Source: Acidobacteriota bacterium
GTDB lineage: Bacteria > Acidobacteriota > Vicinamibacteria > Vicinamibacterales > 2-12-FULL-66-21
Direction of reading: 5' to 3'
Length of the DNA: 64,000 bases
NCBI GenBank assembly: GCA_003222675.1
Contig: QHWT01000072.1
Coordinates: forward strand, 29,110-93,109
The first letter of the stretch is position 1. Every line of letters starts with the position of its first letter. This document shows positions 19,686 through 27,436 of this stretch, in pieces. The notes under the pieces were generated by a model, which searched no databases, was not told the origin of the DNA, and saw only the letters and a program-made list of their open reading frames with translations. The position numbers were made by a program, and so were the translations under genes.

Positions 19686-20531
19686 CTATCTGCAGCACTC
19701 AGAGGTACAGCAACTCGTGACGTCAGGTTTGCGGGCGCGCACGAACGCGCTTGCGACCCGCCCGTCGATCGTCGGCGCGAGGCGGTCGACGTCGACGCCG
19801 GTCTCCATCAAAAACGCGCGCGCGTCCTCGACTTTGTAGACGCGCCACGGTTCGACGGTCACGTCCGCGAATCCCGCCGCCATCAGCCTCGAGGCGTACT
19901 CGGACTCCTCCAGCGCGCCGGCGATGCAGCCGACCCACAGCTCCATGCTGCGGCGAATGTCTGCGGGCACATCGCCGCGGACGATGACGTCCGAAACGGC
20001 AAAGCGGCCGTTCGGTTTCAGCACGCGAAATGCTTCGCGCAGCACTGCATCCTTGTCGGTCGACAGGTTGATCACGCAGTTCGAGATGATGACGTCGACC
20101 GAGTTGTCGGGCAGCGGAATAGCTTCGATGGTGCCTTTCAGGAACTCCACGTTCGTGGCGCCGGCCTTGCGCTGGTTCTCGCGCGCGAGCGCCAGCATCT
20201 CGTCCGTCATGTCGAGGCCGTACGCCTTGCCGGCGGGACCGACCCGCTTCGCGGAGAGCAGCACGTCGATGCCGCCGCCCGATCCGAGATCGAGCACCGT
20301 CTGACCGGGCTCGAGCGTGACCAGGGCCGTCGGGTTGCCGCACCCGAGTGAGGCGGTCACCGCATCGGCGGGCAAGCCATTGGTCTCCGCATCGGAATAC
20401 AGATTCGAGCTAATCGGGTCGCCGCAGCCGCACGCTGCGGGAGCGCAACAGCCGGAGTTCGCTGACGTCGTGGCAACGGCCGTCGCAATCGCACCGTATC
20501 GCTCTCGAATCGCCTGACTGATGTCCGCCAT
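19686..20531 (-). CDS. arsM: arsenite S-adenosylmethionine methyltransferase
   Basis: A 281-aa ORF with N-terminal Cys pairs (SGCCAPAACGCG), LGCGNP, and the SAM motif VLDLGSGGGIDV. It also shows VIISNCVINL and a Cys-rich C-terminus. Confidence 0.85.
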   Translation of the reverse strand: MADISQAIRERYGAIATAVATTSANSGCCAPAACGCGDPISSNLYSDAETNGLPADAVTASLGCGNPTALVTLEPGQTVLDLGSGGGIDVLLSAKRVGPAGKAYGLDMTDEMLALARENQRKAGATNVEFLKGTIEAIPLPDNSVDVIISNCVINLSTDKDAVLREAFRVLKPNGRFAVSDVIVRGDVPADIRRSMELWVGCIAGALEESEYASRLMAAGFADVTVEPWRVYKVEDARAFLMETGVDVDRLAPTIDGRVASAFVRARKPDVTSCCTSECCR

Positions 20532-20607
20532 CGAAAACTCCTTATATGCGTTAACACGAATATATGAGAGTCTATTCGAGTTATGATATATATGTCAAGG
20601 CGAATAT
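20532..20607. promoter_or_regulatory. AT-rich divergent arsM/arsR promoter-operator region
   Basis: This is the only strongly AT-rich stretch nearby. CGAATATATGA is directly repeated at 20557-20567 and 20601-20611. There are TATATG words and an imperfect palindrome centred on GTTAAC (20549-20554). Confidence 0.45.
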
Positions 20608-21012
20608 ATGACCAGCCCGCTCGATGACATGGAACGGCTCTTCAAGGCGCTCGCAGACAGGACCCGGCTGCGAATCCTCGGCCTCCTGTTGACCGGCGAA
20701 GTGTGCGTCTGCGACATCCACCAGGCGCTCAAAATCCCGCAGCCGAAAGCCTCGCGTCATCTCGCGTATCTTCGCCGGGCGGGGCTGGTCGACACGCGCC
20801 GCGAAGGGCTCTGGATTCACTATCGGATGGCGCATCTCTCGAATCCGGTGCTCGTGGCCGTCGGCGACGCCGTGCGCCATGCGCTCACGCATATGGACGC
20901 CGTGCATCGCGATGCGGAACGGCTTCAGCGGAAGACCGGCTGTTGTCTCCCAGCGCCCGGTGACGTGGTGGGCGCACCGTGTTGCGCCGCTCCCTTCGTC
21001 ACTTCCCCGTGA
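20608..21012 (+). CDS. arsR: ArsR/SmtB-family metalloregulator
   Basis: A 134-aa ORF with LADRTRLRILGLLLTGEVCVCDI (wHTH with a CVC metalloid site) and HLAYLRRAGLV. It is divergent from arsM. Confidence 0.85.
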   Translation: MTSPLDDMERLFKALADRTRLRILGLLLTGEVCVCDIHQALKIPQPKASRHLAYLRRAGLVDTRREGLWIHYRMAHLSNPVLVAVGDAVRHALTHMDAVHRDAERLQRKTGCCLPAPGDVVGAPCCAAPFVTSP

Positions 21013-21074
21013 GCCATCCGACAACCGACACCCGGCCTCCGACAGCCAACCTCCGATGATAGGCTGCCGTACGC

Positions 21075-23054
21075 ATGGAACTCGTGGGCGATCTCACGCT
21101 CGTGCTGGTGGCGGCGCTCGTCGGCGCCTTCCTCGCGCAGCGATTCAAACAGCCGCTGATCGTCGGCTACATTCTTGCCGGCGTGGTCGTGGGTCCGTTC
21201 ACCGGCGGACTCACGGTCGTCAACGTCCACGACATCGAGCAACTGGCCGAGATCGGCGTTGCTCTCCTGCTGTTCTCGTTGGGCCTGGAAGTCTCGTTTC
21301 GCGAGCTCGCACCGGTGCGCACCGTCGCACTCGCGGGGGCGACGCTCCAGATCGTGCTCACGATCGCCTTCGGTCATGGCATCGGCCTCGCGTTCGGGTG
21401 GCCATGGCCCGCCTCGCTGTGGTTCGGCGCGCTCATCTCGCTGTCGAGCACGATGGTTGCGCTCAAGACGCTCCAGGCGCAGGGGCGCCTCGGGACGCTG
21501 TCCAGCCGTGTGATGCTGGGCATCCTCGTCGTGCAGGACCTCGCGGTCGTCCCGATGATGATCGTCCTGCCGGAATTGAGCGCGTCGCGTGGGGGCGTCA
21601 TCCCCGTCGTTGCCGCGACCGCCCGTGCGGTCGTGCTCCTTGGCGTCATTGTGTTCGTGTCGACACGCATCGTCCCGCGCGTCATGGCGTTCGTCGCGCG
21701 GTGGAACTCGCGCGAGCTGTTTCTGCTCTCGACGACGACCGCGGCGCTCGGCGTGGGCTACGTGACTTGGTCGTTCGGGTTGTCGCTCGCGCTGGGCGCG
21801 TTCATTGCGGGGCTCGTGATCAACGAGTCGGAGTACGCGCACCAGGCACTCAGCGACGTCATCCCGCTGCGCGACGTGTTCGGCATGCTGTTCTTCGTGT
21901 CACAAGGCATGCTGCTCGATCCCGCGCAGGTCTGGCAGCATCTCGGCACGCTCGCGGTCGTCCTGGTCGCGGTGATCTTCGGCAAGTCCGCGATCCTGGC
22001 CGCGGTTGTCCGCGTTTTCGGTTACCGGAACGTCGTGCCGCTGGCGGTTGGGTTGACGCTCTTCCAGGTCGGCGAGTTTGCGTTCGTGCTGGCGCGCGTG
22101 GGGCAGTCGACCGGCGCGATCCCGAACGATCTCTACTCGCTGATGCTGAACACCGCGATTGCCACCATGGCCCTCACGCCTGCCATTTCGGGCCTGACGC
22201 CCGCGGTTTACGCCCGTGTGCATCGGCGGCGGGCGCGCGAAACACTGGAAGCGATCAATATTCCGGCCGGGGGACTCGCGGATCACATCATCATTGCCGG
22301 CTCGGGACGTGTCGGGCGCAGCGTCGCCGATGCGCTCTGGCAGTTGAAGGTGCCGTGCGTAGTGATCGAGCTCGACGATCGCAGGGTCCAGCACGCGCGT
22401 GTGGCGGGGTTGCCGGTGATCTACGGCGACGCGAGCCAGAGCATCGTGCTCGAAGCGGCCGCTATCAGTCGCGCCCGCGCGATTCTCGTCACCGTGCCGG
22501 CGTTTCCAGACGTCCGCAGCATTGTGACGACCGCGCGGCAACTCCAGCCCGACCTGGCGATCATCGCGAGGGCTGATGGACGCGAGGCCGTTCAGGCGCT
22601 TTACGCGCTCGGGATCGAGGAAGTGACCTCGCCGGAATTCGAGGCGGCCATCGAAATGACACGCCAGGCGCTCATCCACTGCAACGTGCCCGCGCACGAG
22701 ATCCTCCGGGTCGCGAGCGCCATCCGCCGCCAGCGGTATGACCTGGCCGGCGGCGATCCCGAGTCGGGCCGCGGGTTGATGTCACAGATCGGCGAAGTCG
22801 CGCGTCAGCTCGACTTCACGTGGGTGGGCATTCCGCCTGACAGCCAGTTCCATGGACGCAGCCTGCGGGAGCTTCGCATTCGGACGGCGATCGGCGCATC
22901 GATCGTCGGCATCATTCACGCCGCCACACTGGTGCCGAATCCCGCCAGCGAGGTGCGCCTCGAGACCGGTGACCTGGTCGCGGTGCTCGGCACACGCGAG
23001 CAGATCGCGCTTTTCGAACAGGCGGCGCGCCTGGGCCTTTCACCCGTAACCTGA
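21075..23054 (+). CDS. CPA2-family monovalent cation:proton antiporter with two RCK/TrkA domains (YbaL/Kef-like)
   Basis: A 659-aa ORF. It has an N-terminal 12-13 TM Na_H_exchanger domain (QPLIVGYILAGVVVGP), then IIIAGSGRVGRSV (TrkA-N) and a C-terminal TrkA-C domain. Confidence 0.85.
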   Translation: MELVGDLTLVLVAALVGAFLAQRFKQPLIVGYILAGVVVGPFTGGLTVVNVHDIEQLAEIGVALLLFSLGLEVSFRELAPVRTVALAGATLQIVLTIAFGHGIGLAFGWPWPASLWFGALISLSSTMVALKTLQAQGRLGTLSSRVMLGILVVQDLAVVPMMIVLPELSASRGGVIPVVAATARAVVLLGVIVFVSTRIVPRVMAFVARWNSRELFLLSTTTAALGVGYVTWSFGLSLALGAFIAGLVINESEYAHQALSDVIPLRDVFGMLFFVSQGMLLDPAQVWQHLGTLAVVLVAVIFGKSAILAAVVRVFGYRNVVPLAVGLTLFQVGEFAFVLARVGQSTGAIPNDLYSLMLNTAIATMALTPAISGLTPAVYARVHRRRARETLEAINIPAGGLADHIIIAGSGRVGRSVADALWQLKVPCVVIELDDRRVQHARVAGLPVIYGDASQSIVLEAAAISRARAILVTVPAFPDVRSIVTTARQLQPDLAIIARADGREAVQALYALGIEEVTSPEFEAAIEMTRQALIHCNVPAHEILRVASAIRRQRYDLAGGDPESGRGLMSQIGEVARQLDFTWVGIPPDSQFHGRSLRELRIRTAIGASIVGIIHAATLVPNPASEVRLETGDLVAVLGTREQIALFEQAARLGLSPVT

Positions 23055-23124
23055 GGCTCGAAAGGGCCGTCACGCGACGCGTCTCGGACTCTGTGCAATG
23101 ACTGAGCGACGTCACAATCGGCTG

Positions 23125-23480
23125 ATGTCGCCCTCGGCATCAGCACCAGCAAGAGATTCTTTTTTTGCCAGATGTCTGCGTAAGTACAACGCTCGCCATC
23201 GATCGCCGTCACGCTGAAGTGAGGAACAAGACGCCTACATTTCTACAGTCCGGGACCACATCGCCGACCTGACAATGCACGACACCAGTTGCGTGATCAC
23301 CGGCGATGACATCGCGGGTGTGCGGGCTCCGGCAATTGTCATCGCAGATCGATGGGGAGAGGTCGCATTCGTCGCGCTGAAGTGGAATCCGCAGCAGACC
23401 TGCCGCACGTTGACGCCAACATCGAGTGGCTTCGGCATGTGCAGGGCCGATGCCCGGAGTGCGAGGGGGAAGCGCGATAG
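23125..23480 (+). pseudogene. small redoxin (AhpC/TSA-like) gene disrupted by an apparent in-place inversion (about 23135-23217) and a frameshift near 23375
   Basis: The N-terminal piece is on the minus strand (V)TAIDGERCTYADIWQKKNLLLVLMP. The next piece is on the plus strand SEEQDAYISTVRDHIADLTMHDTSCVITGDDIAGVRAPAIVIADRWGEVAFVA. The family-like tail AEVESAADLPHVDANIEWLRHVQGRCPECEGEAR-stop (23478-23480) is in another plus frame. Confidence 0.5.
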
Positions 23481-23599
23481 CGACGCCGGCAGCGCGTTGG
23501 TCGGCGGAACGGACCAGAAGGTCGGCCAGGAAGCGATCAAGCGCTTCGATGATCTGATGAAGCAGCTGAAGGCGATAGAAGCCACCCTGCCGCGATGAC

Positions 23600-23845
23600 G
23601 AAGGTGACCACGGCTGTTCCGAAGGACACGGATCCACAAACGAAACAACGAAGGTAGCGAAGACGAACGGAGGCACGTTCGTCGCCGCGCAGCCCATGAC
23701 GGTCGTATCATGCGCGGCCGAAGCAGCTTCATTGACCTCCGTTCCCTCCGTTGCTTCGTGTTTGAAATCCGTTGCCTTCGAGTGCTTCGGCTCCTCCCGT
23801 CTTCGTCTTCCTCCGTTTGCTCCCGGTCACAGCGGAACATCCAGC
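23600..23845. repeat. imperfect long palindromic REP-like element
   Basis: Arms such as AACGAAACAACGAAGG...GCGAAGACGAACGGAGG face CCTCCGTTCCCTCCGTTGCTTCGTGTTTG...CCTCCCGTCTTCGTCTTCCTCCGTTTGC. Confidence 0.5.
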
Positions 23846-24296
23846 GAATTTGAAGTCCTGCTCGAGGCGCGCCTTCAGCGCGCGCAAGGTGTGGTCCGCG
23901 CCCTTCCGCGCGCGCGACCGCGCGATCGCGCGTTTGACGCTTCCCAGCACGCCGCTCAAGGCGTCGACACGCGAGCGATTGATGTAGATGACGCGCGTCC
24001 GCGGGGCCGACGGCGTGGAGAGGTCGGGTCGCGATATTCGAGAAGGGCGGAGTCTCCGTGCGCGAGGTAACGCGCGGCGTAGGCGACGAGATACTGTCGA
24101 TACGCGTCGGCGATGCGCGACGCGCCGTCAGTGCCGGAGGCCTGGACGGAGCGAATGCGCTCGATACCCGCGACGTCGAGCTTCACCGCGCAGTCGCCCG
24201 TGCAGCACCCTCGCAGATCATCGACGTCCCGTCCGCGATCTGTAATACCGCGATGTTGGTCCACCGCGCAAGAAGCGCCGTCCAGTCTGCAGTCAT
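23729..24296 (-). pseudogene. minus-strand coding signal of unknown family spread over three reading frames (two apparent frameshifts)
   Basis: Third-position GC favours MTADWTALLARWTNIAVLQIADG first. It then favours ...DDLRGCCTGDCAVKLDVAGIERIRSVQASGTDGASRIADAYRQYLVAYAARYLAHGDSALLEY, and finally ...TRVIYINRSRVDALSGVLGSVKRAIARSRARKGADHTLRALKARLEQDFKF. The tail runs into the REP element. Confidence 0.3.
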
Positions 24297-24367
24297 CTCC
24301 GCCGTCTAGCGGCTCCACGGCGGCACGACTTTGGTGCGTCTGAACGCTATGTGCAAAGATCTTCGGG

Positions 24368-25372
24368 ATGCACGACGTCATCGTGATCGGGGCAGGGCCC
24401 GTTGGCCTGGCCTGCGCAATCGAAGCGGATCGGGCAGGCCTTCGCGCGTCGGTGATTGAAAAAGAAGCGCTCGTCAATTCACTCGTCGGCTATCCGGCGA
24501 AGATGGAATTCTTTTCAACGCCGGAGCTCATCGAGATCGGCGGCTATCCATTTCCGGTCCAGGGATACAAGCCGACGCGCGAAGAGGCAATCGAGTATTA
24601 CCGAGGGGTCATGGAGCGCGCGGCAATCGACGTGCGGCTCTACGAGCGCGTGCTGACCGTCAGCGGCGAGCGCGGCGACTTTACCGTCGTGACGAGCAGA
24701 GGCGAGCACCGCGCCCGACACGTGATTGTCTCGACGGGCTTCTTTGATCGACCAAACCTGATGAACGTACCCGGCGAGGGTCTCCCGAAGGTCACGCATT
24801 ACTACAGGGAGCCGTATCAGTACGTCCGCCAGAGAGTCGCCGTCATTGGCGCGCGAAATTCCGCGGCGAAGGCGGCGCTCGACTGCTATCGGCACGGCGC
24901 CGAGGTGACCCTCATCGTCCGCGCGTCCAAGCTCTCCGACAAGATCAAATATTGGATCAAGCCTGATCTCGAGAACCGGATCAAAGAGGGCAGCATCCGC
25001 GCGCACTTCAACACCGTCATCGAAGAGATTCGCGAATCATCAGTCGTGATGCGCGCGCCAGACGGCGTCCGCGACGTCGACAACGACTGGGTGATCGCGA
25101 TGACGGGCTACCATCCGGATTACGAGTTTCTCGAAGCGCTGGGACTCCGCATCGCAGACGATGCCTATCGGACGCCGGTCTTCGACGCCGCGACGTTCGA
25201 GACGACGCGGCCTGGCGTGTATCTGGCGGGGACGGTCTGTGGCGGCTACCGGACGGGTCGGTGGTTCATCGAGAATGGCCGCTTCCACGCGAACCAGATC
25301 GTCAAGCACATTGGAGGACTCGCTCCCGAGCCCATTCCGTTCGAAGCGATTCATTGGAAAACCGAGGAGTAG
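24368..25372 (+). CDS. ypdA: YpdA-family putative bacillithiol disulfide reductase
   Basis: A 334-aa ORF with MHDVIVIGAGPVGLACAIEA, FFSTPELIEIGGYPF, VAVIGARNSAAKAALD and GRWFIENGRFHA. Confidence 0.85.
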   Translation: MHDVIVIGAGPVGLACAIEADRAGLRASVIEKEALVNSLVGYPAKMEFFSTPELIEIGGYPFPVQGYKPTREEAIEYYRGVMERAAIDVRLYERVLTVSGERGDFTVVTSRGEHRARHVIVSTGFFDRPNLMNVPGEGLPKVTHYYREPYQYVRQRVAVIGARNSAAKAALDCYRHGAEVTLIVRASKLSDKIKYWIKPDLENRIKEGSIRAHFNTVIEEIRESSVVMRAPDGVRDVDNDWVIAMTGYHPDYEFLEALGLRIADDAYRTPVFDAATFETTRPGVYLAGTVCGGYRTGRWFIENGRFHANQIVKHIGGLAPEPIPFEAIHWKTEE

Positions 25373-25645
25373 GTCGTGTGCTGTACCGGAATGAGACTCG
25401 GCCTTTGCACATAAATCCTCAGGAATAGGCCTCCCCGCGGGTCAGGTGTTCAACAACAGAACTGCAGGTTCGCGCCGAAACGGAACAGCTCCCCCCATCG
25501 CCCCCTGCCAGCCGTCGCGTCCTGGTAGACCATAACCACATTCAATGCAGTAGTTTAAAGCCATCGTCGCAACATAACGCTGTGCTGGCTGATGAATTGC
25601 TGAGCAGCCACTGCGGTCGACTCTATCTCAACGGACTGACCCTAT

Positions 25646-27436
25646 ATGCATGCAACATTGCGACGTCCCTTTGTTCGCGGGCGATTCGTGGCGCTCGCCA
25701 TCGCTCTCGTATGGCTGGCTTCAGGGACTCACGGCTTTACGGCCCCAGCATCGGACGATTCCGGTACGCGGAAGCTCGATGCGCACCTGCGGCAGGCGAT
25801 CGATCGCGATGGCGACGATCTCGCCGAGCGCGTCATCGTCCAGGTCGAGGCCGGCGCGGCGGACAGCGTCGAGGCGGCGTTGAAGAGTCGCGGTGAAAAA
25901 CCGCTTCGCTACCATCCGGGCATCGGCGCATTCACGGTGCGTTCAAAGCACCTGCTCGCGCTTGCAAAACATCCCGGAGTCAAATCCATTTCCATCGACG
26001 CGCCGCTCGAGGCGCTTCAGATCGCTCCGCTGGCTGTGCTGACGACGGAACAGATCGTTCGCGATTCGGTGAGCATCTCGGGCACGTGGACGGGCGCAGG
26101 CGTCGGCGTTGCGCTGATCGACTCGGGGATCGAGCCGTCGGTCGACTTCACCGGGCGGATCAGCGCGTTCTACGACTTCACGCGAGGAGGGATTGCCACC
26201 GCGCCGTTTGACGACTACGGCCACGGCACCCACGTCGCGGGACTGATTGGCGGATCCGGAGTCCTCAGCAACGGCGCCTACGCGGGCCTTGCGCCCGACG
26301 TGAAGTTCGTCGTGCTCAAGGCGCTCAACAGCACCGGCGGCGGATACACCAGCGACGTCATCAGCGCGATCGAGTTCGCGACGGCAAACCGCGCGGCGCT
26401 CGGCATCGATGTGATGAACCTGTCACTCGGTCATCCGCCCTTTGAGAGCGCGTCGACCGATCCGCTGGTGCGGGCAGTTGAAGCGGCCGTCCGCGCCGGC
26501 ATCGTCGTCGTGGCCTCCGCGGGCAACTACGGCCGGAACGCCACCACGAACGAGATTGGATACGGCGGAATTGCGTCTCCCGGCAACGCGCCGTCGGCGC
26601 TGACGGTCGGATCATTCATGACCGAGGACACACTGCGCCGGTCCGACGATCGCATGAACGGATTCAGCTCGCGCGGTCCGTCGTACTTCGACGCGTTCGC
26701 CAAACCCGACATCGTGGCGCCCGGCTACAAGCTGATCGCAAACGCGGCGAAGCAGAGCACGCTCTACAACACATACCCCAGCCTGCGCGTGTCGGGTACA
26801 AGCGGCGGCGATTACATGATGCTGAGCGGCACCAGCATGGCGGCTGGCGTGACATCGGGCGTCGTTGCGCAGCTGATCCAGGCGAACCGTTCGACGAACC
26901 TCACGCGCGCGCTGCCGCCGAATGCCATCAAGGCGGTGCTGCAGCATACAGCGCTGCGCTTGCACGATGACACTGGCGCGGAATACGACGCGATGACTCA
27001 AGGCGCGGGCGCCCTCAACGGCGCAGGGGCGATCAACTTTGCGCGCGGCGTCAAGAACGCGACTGCGGTCGCTTCATCATGGCTGGACGCCGCGTTGTCG
27101 CCCGATCCCGGCTCGTCAACGATCGACGGCGAGACGGTGGTCTGGGGGAACACGGTCGTGTGGGGCAACACCGTGGTGTGGGGGAACACCATCGGCATCA
27201 ACCAGGCAGCCTGGGCGAACACCGTCGTCTGGGGCAACACGGTCGTCTGGGGAAATACGGTCGTGTGGGGCAACAACGTCGTGACCGATAACACGGTCGT
27301 CTGGGGCAACACGGTCGTGTGGGGCAACGCTGTTCTCGAGGGCAACACCGTCGTCTGGGGCAACAACGATCTCAGTGGCGCGACGGCGAGCAATGCCGTG
27401 CTCGGGAGCAACACGCTGATCAACGCGGTGCGCTGA
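25646..27436 (+). CDS. secreted S8-family (subtilisin-like) serine peptidase with C-terminal NTVVWG hexapeptide repeat domain
   Basis: A 596-aa ORF with a signal peptide. The catalytic triad contexts are VALIDSGI, HGTHVAGLIGG and SGTSMAAGVTSG. Confidence 0.85.
   Translation: MHATLRRPFVRGRFVALAIALVWLASGTHGFTAPASDDSGTRKLDAHLRQAIDRDGDDLAERVIVQVEAGAADSVEAALKSRGEKPLRYHPGIGAFTVRSKHLLALAKHPGVKSISIDAPLEALQIAPLAVLTTEQIVRDSVSISGTWTGAGVGVALIDSGIEPSVDFTGRISAFYDFTRGGIATAPFDDYGHGTHVAGLIGGSGVLSNGAYAGLAPDVKFVVLKALNSTGGGYTSDVISAIEFATANRAALGIDVMNLSLGHPPFESASTDPLVRAVEAAVRAGIVVVASAGNYGRNATTNEIGYGGIASPGNAPSALTVGSFMTEDTLRRSDDRMNGFSSRGPSYFDAFAKPDIVAPGYKLIANAAKQSTLYNTYPSLRVSGTSGGDYMMLSGTSMAAGVTSGVVAQLIQANRSTNLTRALPPNAIKAVLQHTALRLHDDTGAEYDAMTQGAGALNGAGAINFARGVKNATAVASSWLDAALSPDPGSSTIDGETVVWGNTVVWGNTVVWGNTIGINQAAWANTVVWGNTVVWGNTVVWGNNVVTDNTVVWGNTVVWGNAVLEGNTVVWGNNDLSGATASNAVLGSNTLINAVR
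27131..27361 (+). repeat. in-frame 18-bp tandem repeat (about 13 units, consensus AACACGGTCGTGTGGGGC = NTVVWG)
   Basis: The peptide reads ETVVWGNTVVWGNTVVWGNTIGINQAAWANTVVWGNTVVWGNTVVWGNNVVTDNTVVWGNTVVWGNAVLEGNTVVWGNN. It lies within the S8 peptidase ORF. Confidence 0.85.

Follow-up and report, generated by a model that had tools for sequence, protein, structure and literature searches.

A small gene between a CPA2 antiporter gene and ypdA in a soil Acidobacteria lineage, very probably a recent pseudogene formed through a precise in-place inversion

The window analysed here is a 64-kb stretch of DNA from an uncultured lineage of soil Acidobacteria, and our subject is a small gene within it, positioned between a gene for a CPA2-type cation/proton antiporter and a gene of the ypdA family, that has lost its integrity as a coding sequence. 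A reading made previously from the letters of the window (the sequence-only reading hereafter) had proposed that a segment of this gene is reverse-complemented in place. This proposal holds, both through matches to a profile of the protein family and through opposite-strand blastn alignments with the loci of relatives, while several of the details have had to be redrawn. The parts of the gene, as they stand in the window, are as follows.

23098..23113, plus strand: retained 5' end of the small gene, from the ATG at 23098 through codons 1-5 (MTERR) to the first position of codon 6
23110..23113: CGTC, the left arm of a 4-bp inverted repeat; the breakpoint can be placed only to somewhere inside the arm
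23114..23229, minus strand: inverted block of 116 bp, from the second base of codon 6 to the last base of codon 44, with the minus-strand reading LVPHFSVTAIDGERCTYADIWQKKNLLLVLMPRATSADC
23230..23233: GACG, the right arm of the same inverted repeat, from the breakpoint scan and from positions 851-854 of the orthologous locus L003, which are covered by the alignments on both strands
23230..23376, plus strand: middle piece, codons 45-93 (DAYISTV...IADRWGEVAFVA), in original orientation and in frame with the ATG at 23098
23377..23378, plus strand: frameshifting insertion of 2 nt, its exact place ambiguous within GCGCT (23374-23378)
23379..23480, plus strand: 3' piece, codons 94-126 and the stop codon (EVESAADLPHVDANIEWLRHVQGRCPECEGEAR, then stop), in a frame different from that of the middle piece, and containing the invariant CPEC motif

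The pieces were recognized with a profile built from 29 intact homologs, which was searched against the six-frame translation of the locus and then of the whole window. On the minus strand, the region in question reads ...VTAIDGERCTYADIWQKKNLLLVLMP..., and also ...RRLVPHFSVTAIDGERCTYADIWQKKNLLLVLMPRATSADC, and the piece in its corrected reading (RRLVPHFSVTAIDG...LMPRATSADC) matches profile positions 5-54 (E 8e-18). On the plus strand, the sequence from approximately 23230 reads DAYISTVRDHIADL... (in the longer reading from 23230, DAYISTVRDHIADLTMHDTSCVITGDDIAGVRAPAIVIADRWGEVAFVA), matching profile positions 38-96 in one frame (frame A, E 8e-22), and the remaining part, ending with the stop codon TAG at 23478-23480, matches positions 95-127 in another frame (frame B, E 3e-14). 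Each of these matches is significant alone, and together, on two strands and in three frames, they cover positions 5 to 127 of the family profile; no other match to the profile exists in the entire window, and no paralog of the gene was found in it. Two diverging pieces had been proposed originally, and both are real, but the actual count is three, the third being in a different plus-strand frame. As to the start of the gene, the ATG at 23098 is supported by the starts of the homologs (MTDRR/MTERH/MTELR...VPHF), and in the present arrangement it opens an open reading frame (ORF) of 39 aa only, ending with the TGA at 23215-23217.

The edges of the block were determined through hidden Markov model scoring of every re-inversion with a left edge between 23095 and 23149 and a right edge between 23200 and 23249. 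The best re-inversions, scoring 133-134 bits, have left edges of 23110-23120 and right edges of 23223-23233 and share a common centre (a+b = 46343). A codon-by-codon comparison with four orthologous genes favours the edges 23114 and 23229, with which codons 6-7 become CTT GTT (CTG ATC or TCT GTT in the orthologues) and codon 44 becomes TGT (CGT in the orthologues). Breakpoint pairs from 23110/23233 to 23114/23229 yield identical restored DNA, because GACG (23230-23233) is the reverse complement of CGTC (23110-23113), the two forming an inverted repeat flush with both edges of a block that measures 116 bp, or 124 bp if the repeats are counted. The chance of at least four such bases at random positions in the window is 0.026. 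No longer inverted repeats bracketing the block were found; a 10-nt pair (23121-23130 and 23135-23144) was considered as a flanking repeat and rejected, as it arose with the flip itself and does not enclose the block. The block is the exact reverse complement, in place, of the ancestral segment, with zero bases gained or lost. One observation at its edge concerns the restored codon 44 (window positions 23114-23116), which is TGT (Cys) versus CGT (Arg) in the close orthologues, a lineage-specific change positioned 1-3 nt inside the block edge, that accidentally makes a PxxxSxxC pattern resembling the peroxiredoxin active-site motif. Either a point mutation associated with the junction or a transition independent of it could account for this change.

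The second lesion is the insertion of 2 nt, where the window reads TTC GTC GCG CT GAA (GTC onward being 23371-23381) versus TTC GTC GCN GAA in the orthologues, and it puts the last 33 codons, the CPEC motif included, into another frame. When both the inversion and the insertion are undone, the result is a gene of 381 nt, the same as in six orthologues and aligned with them without gaps. Its product of 126 aa likewise aligns without gaps with the homologs of approximately 126 aa, is 77% identical to the best of them (P0001), and retains 18 of the 18 invariant residues. The sequence-only reading had delimited the block at 23135-23217 (approximately 83 bp), with breakpoints thought to be uncertain by a few nucleotides, had started the gene at an ATG at 23125, and had considered the gene restored by re-inversion. 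Such a re-inversion does produce an open frame, but it scores 114 bits, 20 bits under the best, starts from a spurious codon, as the ATG at 23125 is inside the flipped block, and ignores the frameshift at 23377-23378; its edges are off by 21 nt on the left and by 12 nt on the right. The absence of a flanking repeat, also part of that reading, is correct at the breakpoints it used and incorrect at the ones determined here, with their flush CGTC/GACG pair.

The polarity of the rearrangement is apparent from comparisons with relatives. In blastn alignments, window positions 23110-23228 match L003 854-736, L004 3663-3549, L002 6136-6022 and L005 617-505 on the opposite strand with 74-79% identity, and positions 23118-23235 match L007 4128-4011, also on the opposite strand, with 78% identity. 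Both flanks of the block match these orthologous loci on the same strand (the middle piece, 23230..23376, with 81% DNA identity to L003), and the block is the sole opposite-strand match over 10-13 kb of shared synteny. Two checks had been suggested with the original observation, for homologs that cover both junctions and for the arrangement in orthologous loci 3' of the CPA2 antiporter gene; intact homologs do span both junctions, and the orthologous loci present the un-inverted arrangement. A protein search with the provisional restored protein produced approximately 30 proteins of approximately 126 aa, the best being 73% identical over 97% of the query. With one genome scanned per GTDB species and an alignment-based query, the family was detected in at least 80 GTDB species, nearly all of them metagenome-assembled genomes (MAGs) of Vicinamibacterales or other Acidobacteriota, while the single restored protein as the query gave no match in the same genomes. 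The pieces of the gene are on one strand in all of the 84 family-match loci, and 67 of these possess a single full-length ORF. As none of the 84 has a piece on the opposite strand, the arrangement in the window is derived. Some relatives (MEDJ01) possess two copies of the gene. In four of the loci, all from ‘MFD’ MAGs (L068, L073, L074, L077), the family gene is split into two pieces on the same strand in a frameshift-like manner, and the splits may reflect errors in sequencing or assembly instead of additional pseudogenes.

A precise flip with nearly no flanking repeat looks artificial at first sight, and a suspicion of an artefact was implicit in the sequence-only reading. However, ten independent assemblies show the same junction. 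The leftover ORF of 107 aa (23275-23598) occurs in identical form on nine contigs (ENA, JGI and Logan), representing at least eight samples, and a slightly different variant (P0030) is encoded on an additional ENA contig, L001. The contigs carrying the 24-mer of the left junction or the truncated ORF are L001 and L087-L094, to which the protein PYR90109.1 of an NCBI MAG is to be added; the 24-mer is present in 10 of the 10 contigs, and all are collinear with the window over 22900-24500 with 99.4-100% identity. Three of them (L001, L090, L092) carry single-nucleotide polymorphisms or indels relative to the window and therefore are not copies of one assembly, those of L001 being solely outside 23098-23480. 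Different assemblers agree on a flip whose repeats measure only 4 bp, thus a misassembly or an edit of the window is excluded, and we see no reason for assemblers operating on De Bruijn graphs to flip a segment so flanked. No intact allele with more than 73% identity exists among the 5.8 billion protein clusters, and therefore the inverted allele appears to be fixed in the population. The second independent lesion and a wrecked neighbour gene (see below) also fit real decay, and the possibility that the real genome has an intact gene is left with close to no probability. Exact scans for the 24-mers of the inverted and the restored junctions in the genome_contigs and the JGI metagenome_contigs collections returned zero matches, but these scans are uninformative, the scanned set being a subset, because JGI contigs that do carry the inverted junction, L088 (3300026315) and L093 (3300005187), were not matched either.

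The same uniformity bears on whether the small gene may be toggled by a site-specific recombinase as a programmed invertible switch (phase variation), given that the in-place inversion covers the 5' part of the gene, as it does in some phase-variable systems. All of the assembled contigs (10/10) present one orientation, with no un-inverted allele in the protein search, and the other orientation would still be frameshifted. The inverted repeats are of 4 bp only, as opposed to roughly 10 bp or more for recombinase sites, neither the genes called up to 10 kb away on both sides (in L087, with their Pfam matches) nor the ORFs of 20000-27000 include a recombinase, invertase or transposase, and no other matched locus of the family has pieces on opposite strands. 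We consider such a switch extremely improbable. The inversion is real, derived and precise, and the gene is disabled.

Could the present arrangement nevertheless constitute a different, functional gene? The leftover ORF of 107 aa is called in the annotations of NCBI (PYR90109.1, a ‘hypothetical protein’ of an Acidobacteria MAG), JGI and ENA, and is identical in most of the contigs, and an ORF of 98 aa is also open on the minus strand (22916-23212). However, conservation among contigs that are 99.4-100% identical is uninformative on selection. The former ORF begins at residue 60 of the family fold, helix alpha1 and strands beta1-beta3 being absent; the frameshift deprives it of the invariant CPEC motif, and it extends into a 353-bp insertion. 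The latter runs antisense into the CPA2 gene. A functional gene of this kind is thus highly unlikely.

Overall, the locus very probably represents a recent, presumably unitary pseudogene of a 126-aa protein of predicted peroxiredoxin fold, once encoded between the CPA2 antiporter and the ypdA genes, and disabled through a natural microinversion. Approximately 30 intact proteins and 67 full-length loci exist elsewhere, compared to the two disabling lesions here, and either lesion alone, the inversion or the insertion, abolishes the product. In the course of events that we propose, codons 6-44 would have been replaced, in this uncultured soil lineage, by their own reverse complement of 116 bp, and 2 nt would have been inserted separately at codon 93/94. 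The ratio of nonsynonymous to synonymous substitution rates (dN/dS) for the restored gene versus the orthologues is 0.17-0.26, compared to 0.15-0.40 among the intact orthologues, with no signal of relaxed selection, and the pieces contain no internal stop codons, suggesting that inactivation has been recent relative to the divergence of the lineages. In the absence of a relaxed-selection signal, ‘recent’ is as closely as the age of the pseudogene can be estimated.

The small gene is not the only casualty at this locus, as a gene on the other strand, overlapping its 3' end in the relatives, is in ruins as well. The neighbouring features are as follows.

21075..23054, plus strand: gene for the CPA2-type cation/proton antiporter, intact, 659 aa, full-length in tblastn with 85.7% amino acid identity to the L004 orthologue
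23422..24474, minus strand: remains of the antisense neighbour gene, from tblastn fragments and the blastn map
23497..23849: insertion of 353 bp, absent from L003, L004, L005 and L007, in which the adjacent blastn segments are contiguous
24368..25372, plus strand: gene for the ypdA-family flavoprotein, intact, 334 aa, TIGR04018 at 452 bits versus a cutoff of 340, with 84.8% amino acid identity to the L004 orthologue

Among the closest relatives, the CPA2 antiporter gene is followed by the small gene, the antisense gene and ypdA. The orthologues of the antiporter carry the Pfam domains Na_H_Exchanger, TrkA_N and TrkA_C, while its NCBIfam matches (CPA2/YbaL/Kef) are under the cutoff, and the product of the ypdA-family gene is named in NCBI as a YpdA family putative bacillithiol disulfide reductase (PYR90112.1). 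The antisense gene encodes 371-383 aa in L003, L004 and L007 and is without a counterpart in L002; its intact protein from L003 belongs to no Pfam or NCBIfam family. In the window, it has suffered the 353-bp insertion, a deletion of 294 bp at 24026/24027, and a loss of approximately 350 bp near 24242-24290. The insertion is positioned 16 nt past the stop codon of the small gene, inside the 3' coding region of the antisense gene, has a GC content of 58.6% versus 64.9%, and has TTG at both edges. It was considered as a repeated mobile element, of which no other copy is present in the window or in the compared loci, and in Rfam it produced only matches below threshold (Hammerhead_II with 20.9 bits versus a gathering cutoff of 37, and Corio-PBP with 21.1 versus 63.5). 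We also observe that its first part looks like the 3' terminus of a coding region (..LVGGTDQKVGQEAIKRFDDLMKQLKAIEATLPR and a stop). The lesions are common to all the independent contigs that reach them, and the small gene and the antisense gene are both wrecked within a zone of approximately 1.4 kb, while both flanking genes are intact. The small gene adjoins CPA2 and ypdA only in the clade of the window itself (1-2 of 80 GTDB loci).

Some observations can be added on the wider surroundings. Directly upstream of the CPA2 gene are an arsenite-methyltransferase-like gene (19686..20531, minus strand) and, at 20608..21012 on the plus strand, a gene for an ArsR-type regulator. This cassette differs between relatives, an Ion_trans_2 channel gene occupying its place in L002. 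On the other side, an ORF of 596 aa at 25646-27436, with 85% identity in L004, ends in a long tandem run of the heptad (N)TVVWGN; no Pfam match is recorded for it in the gene table of L087.

As to how the block was inverted, we consider it moderately probable that this occurred by copying, during replication or repair, primed on the 4-bp microhomology, most probably through a two-step inter-strand template switch or microhomology-mediated break-induced repair (MMBIR). In such a scheme, a nascent 3' end terminating in ...CGTC would anneal, at the far edge of the block, to the GACG of the opposite template, the block would then be copied backwards from that template, and, after GACG at the near edge has been copied, synthesis would resume on the original template past the far GACG. 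Both routes have been discussed previously. In a survey between human and chimpanzee (Sci Rep 2022, PMC8755829), pure microinversions are reported to have inverted repeats of 3-75 nt juxtaposed to their boundaries, a rule with which the block agrees, and the two routes discussed are two template switches at the repeats during replication and MMBIR following a break inside the segment (PMC8755829). One configuration of the four-point template-switch model (Loytynoja and Goldman) inverts a fragment and does nothing else, as in the block described here, and that model generalises the bacterial one of Ripley, where the spacer separating two inverted repeats is inverted through a switch between strands (PMC5453318).

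Alternatively, two double-strand breaks may have released the 116-bp fragment, which was then re-ligated in reverse by end joining (non-homologous end joining of the Ku/LigD type). The end product is compatible with this, two-break repair is discussed as a previously proposed route (PMC8755829), and the other rearrangements of the same 1.4-kb zone (an insertion of 353 bp, a deletion of 294 bp and a loss of approximately 350 bp) could reflect repeated breakage and sloppy repair. However, both junctions are free of nucleotide loss or gain, an unusual outcome for the end joining of two breaks, the model does not require the flush 4-bp repeat, and a free fragment of 116 bp must be retained and re-ligated. 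We thus consider this alternative unlikely, and other or unknown routes of inversion take the remainder of the probability, after copying and re-ligation.

Returning to copying on the microhomology, a number of points weigh against the reading that we prefer. The mechanism is deduced from the end product alone. Microhomology of 4 bp is expected by chance approximately once in 40 trials, and the edges can be shifted by up to 6 nt per side with an almost equal protein-level score, and so the support provided by the repeat is moderate. With regard to template switching specifically, two jumps of a polymerase within a repeat of 3-4 nt have been considered hard to envisage, and MMBIR has been favoured (PMC8755829).

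The protein family to which the gene belonged has so far escaped annotation. Its members begin with MTxRxxVPHF and end with CPECEGEAR, the invariant elements including a DRWGE motif and the C-terminal CPEC. Neither the restored protein nor the two ORFs as they stand match anything in Pfam or NCBIfam at threshold. Among the 29 homologs, 10 touch AhpC-TSA (PF00578; best E 3.9e-4) and two touch Redoxin (PF08534; E 0.064 or weaker), and the best match of the family profile to PDB sequences is at 0.012. An AlphaFold2 model of the intact homolog P0001, produced from the family alignment (pLDDT 86.3, pTM 0.80), has Bcp, Tpx, AhpE and 2-Cys Prx as its top Foldseek matches in PDB (probability 1.00, TM 0.56-0.73, E of approximately 1e-5), and thus the predicted fold of the family is of the peroxiredoxin/thioredoxin type. 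In peroxiredoxins, the peroxidatic cysteine resides in a PxxxT/SxxC motif that follows strand beta3. No such cysteine is found in the family alignment, the respective column holding Arg in close homologs and varying among the others, and the only invariant cysteines of the family are those of the C-terminal CPEC. ‘Redoxin-like’, the term used in the sequence-only reading, would then be right for the fold, as modelled, but not for membership in AhpC/TSA or Redoxin at curated thresholds, and it is unproven for the chemistry. In the clade of the window, the product of the family could be a thiol-disulfide partner of YpdA.

The biological effect of the event is small, one accessory gene being dead in one soil lineage, and the case adds one more instance to a known kind of mutation and one more ordinary pseudogene. 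It is, however, an unusually clean bacterial case of a precise inversion of over 100 bp, with minimal inverted microhomology flush with its edges, for which many outgroups give the polarity and many assemblies provide replication. It also exposes a blind spot, as detection of pseudogenes through frameshifts and stop codons does not see small in-place inversions, and PYR90109.1, now a ‘hypothetical protein,’ should be flagged as a pseudogene fragment. An unannotated family of the peroxiredoxin fold (DRWGE, CPECEGEAR), present in at least 80 species, mostly Vicinamibacterales, is brought to notice, and its loss in this lineage shows that the gene is dispensable there, with the adjacent ypdA kept. 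Whether both of the more far-reaching proposals are correct, i.e., that this is a natural record of a pure inversion of over 100 bp through two template jumps on a 4-bp inverted microhomology, and that the family may be a partner of YpdA, we can only suggest tentatively, the odds being somewhat against the two holding together. If true, this inversion is several times longer than the definite primate microinversions of 17-33 bp, suggesting that such mutation contributes to gene death in bacteria and has been overlooked since gene callers annotate the leftover ORF as hypothetical.

Among known systems, the peroxiredoxins Bcp/PrxQ, Tpx and AhpE (in PDB, Bcp4 3hjp, Tpx 1y25 and AhpE 1xvw) are alike in fold to the predicted structure of the family product, with TM 0.6-0.73 for these three types, and they share with it the segment of a hydrophobic strand followed by P, and the D-x-x-G turn. 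They differ in that identity with the family is only 10-16% and its scores are under the Pfam and NCBIfam thresholds, in the position of the peroxidatic Cys being occupied by Arg or variable, in the invariant CPEC being located on a low-confidence tail of the model, and in length, 126 aa versus 150-170 aa. As to the inversion, the systems of Hin/Gin and FimB/FimE and the shufflons resemble the locus in a segment being inverted in place and overlapping the start of a gene, but their repeats are of tens of bp, versus 4 bp here, where neither orientation gives a functional gene. In the Ripley/Lovett model of quasipalindromes, an inter-strand switch and return can invert a spacer, as in the window, but that model involves a pre-existing, near-perfect and longer repeat and usually a few to tens of bases, versus a 4-bp repeat and a 116-bp spacer. 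The pure microinversions of primates (PMC8755829) are, like the block described here, exact in-place reverse complements with flanking repeats and with nothing gained or lost, and the 4-nt repeat of the window falls into their ‘intermediate’ class of 4-7 nt; the block differs from them in measuring 116 bp versus 17-33 bp, and in belonging to a bacterium, where it interrupts a coding sequence and, as a component of a pseudogene, appears fixed in a natural population.

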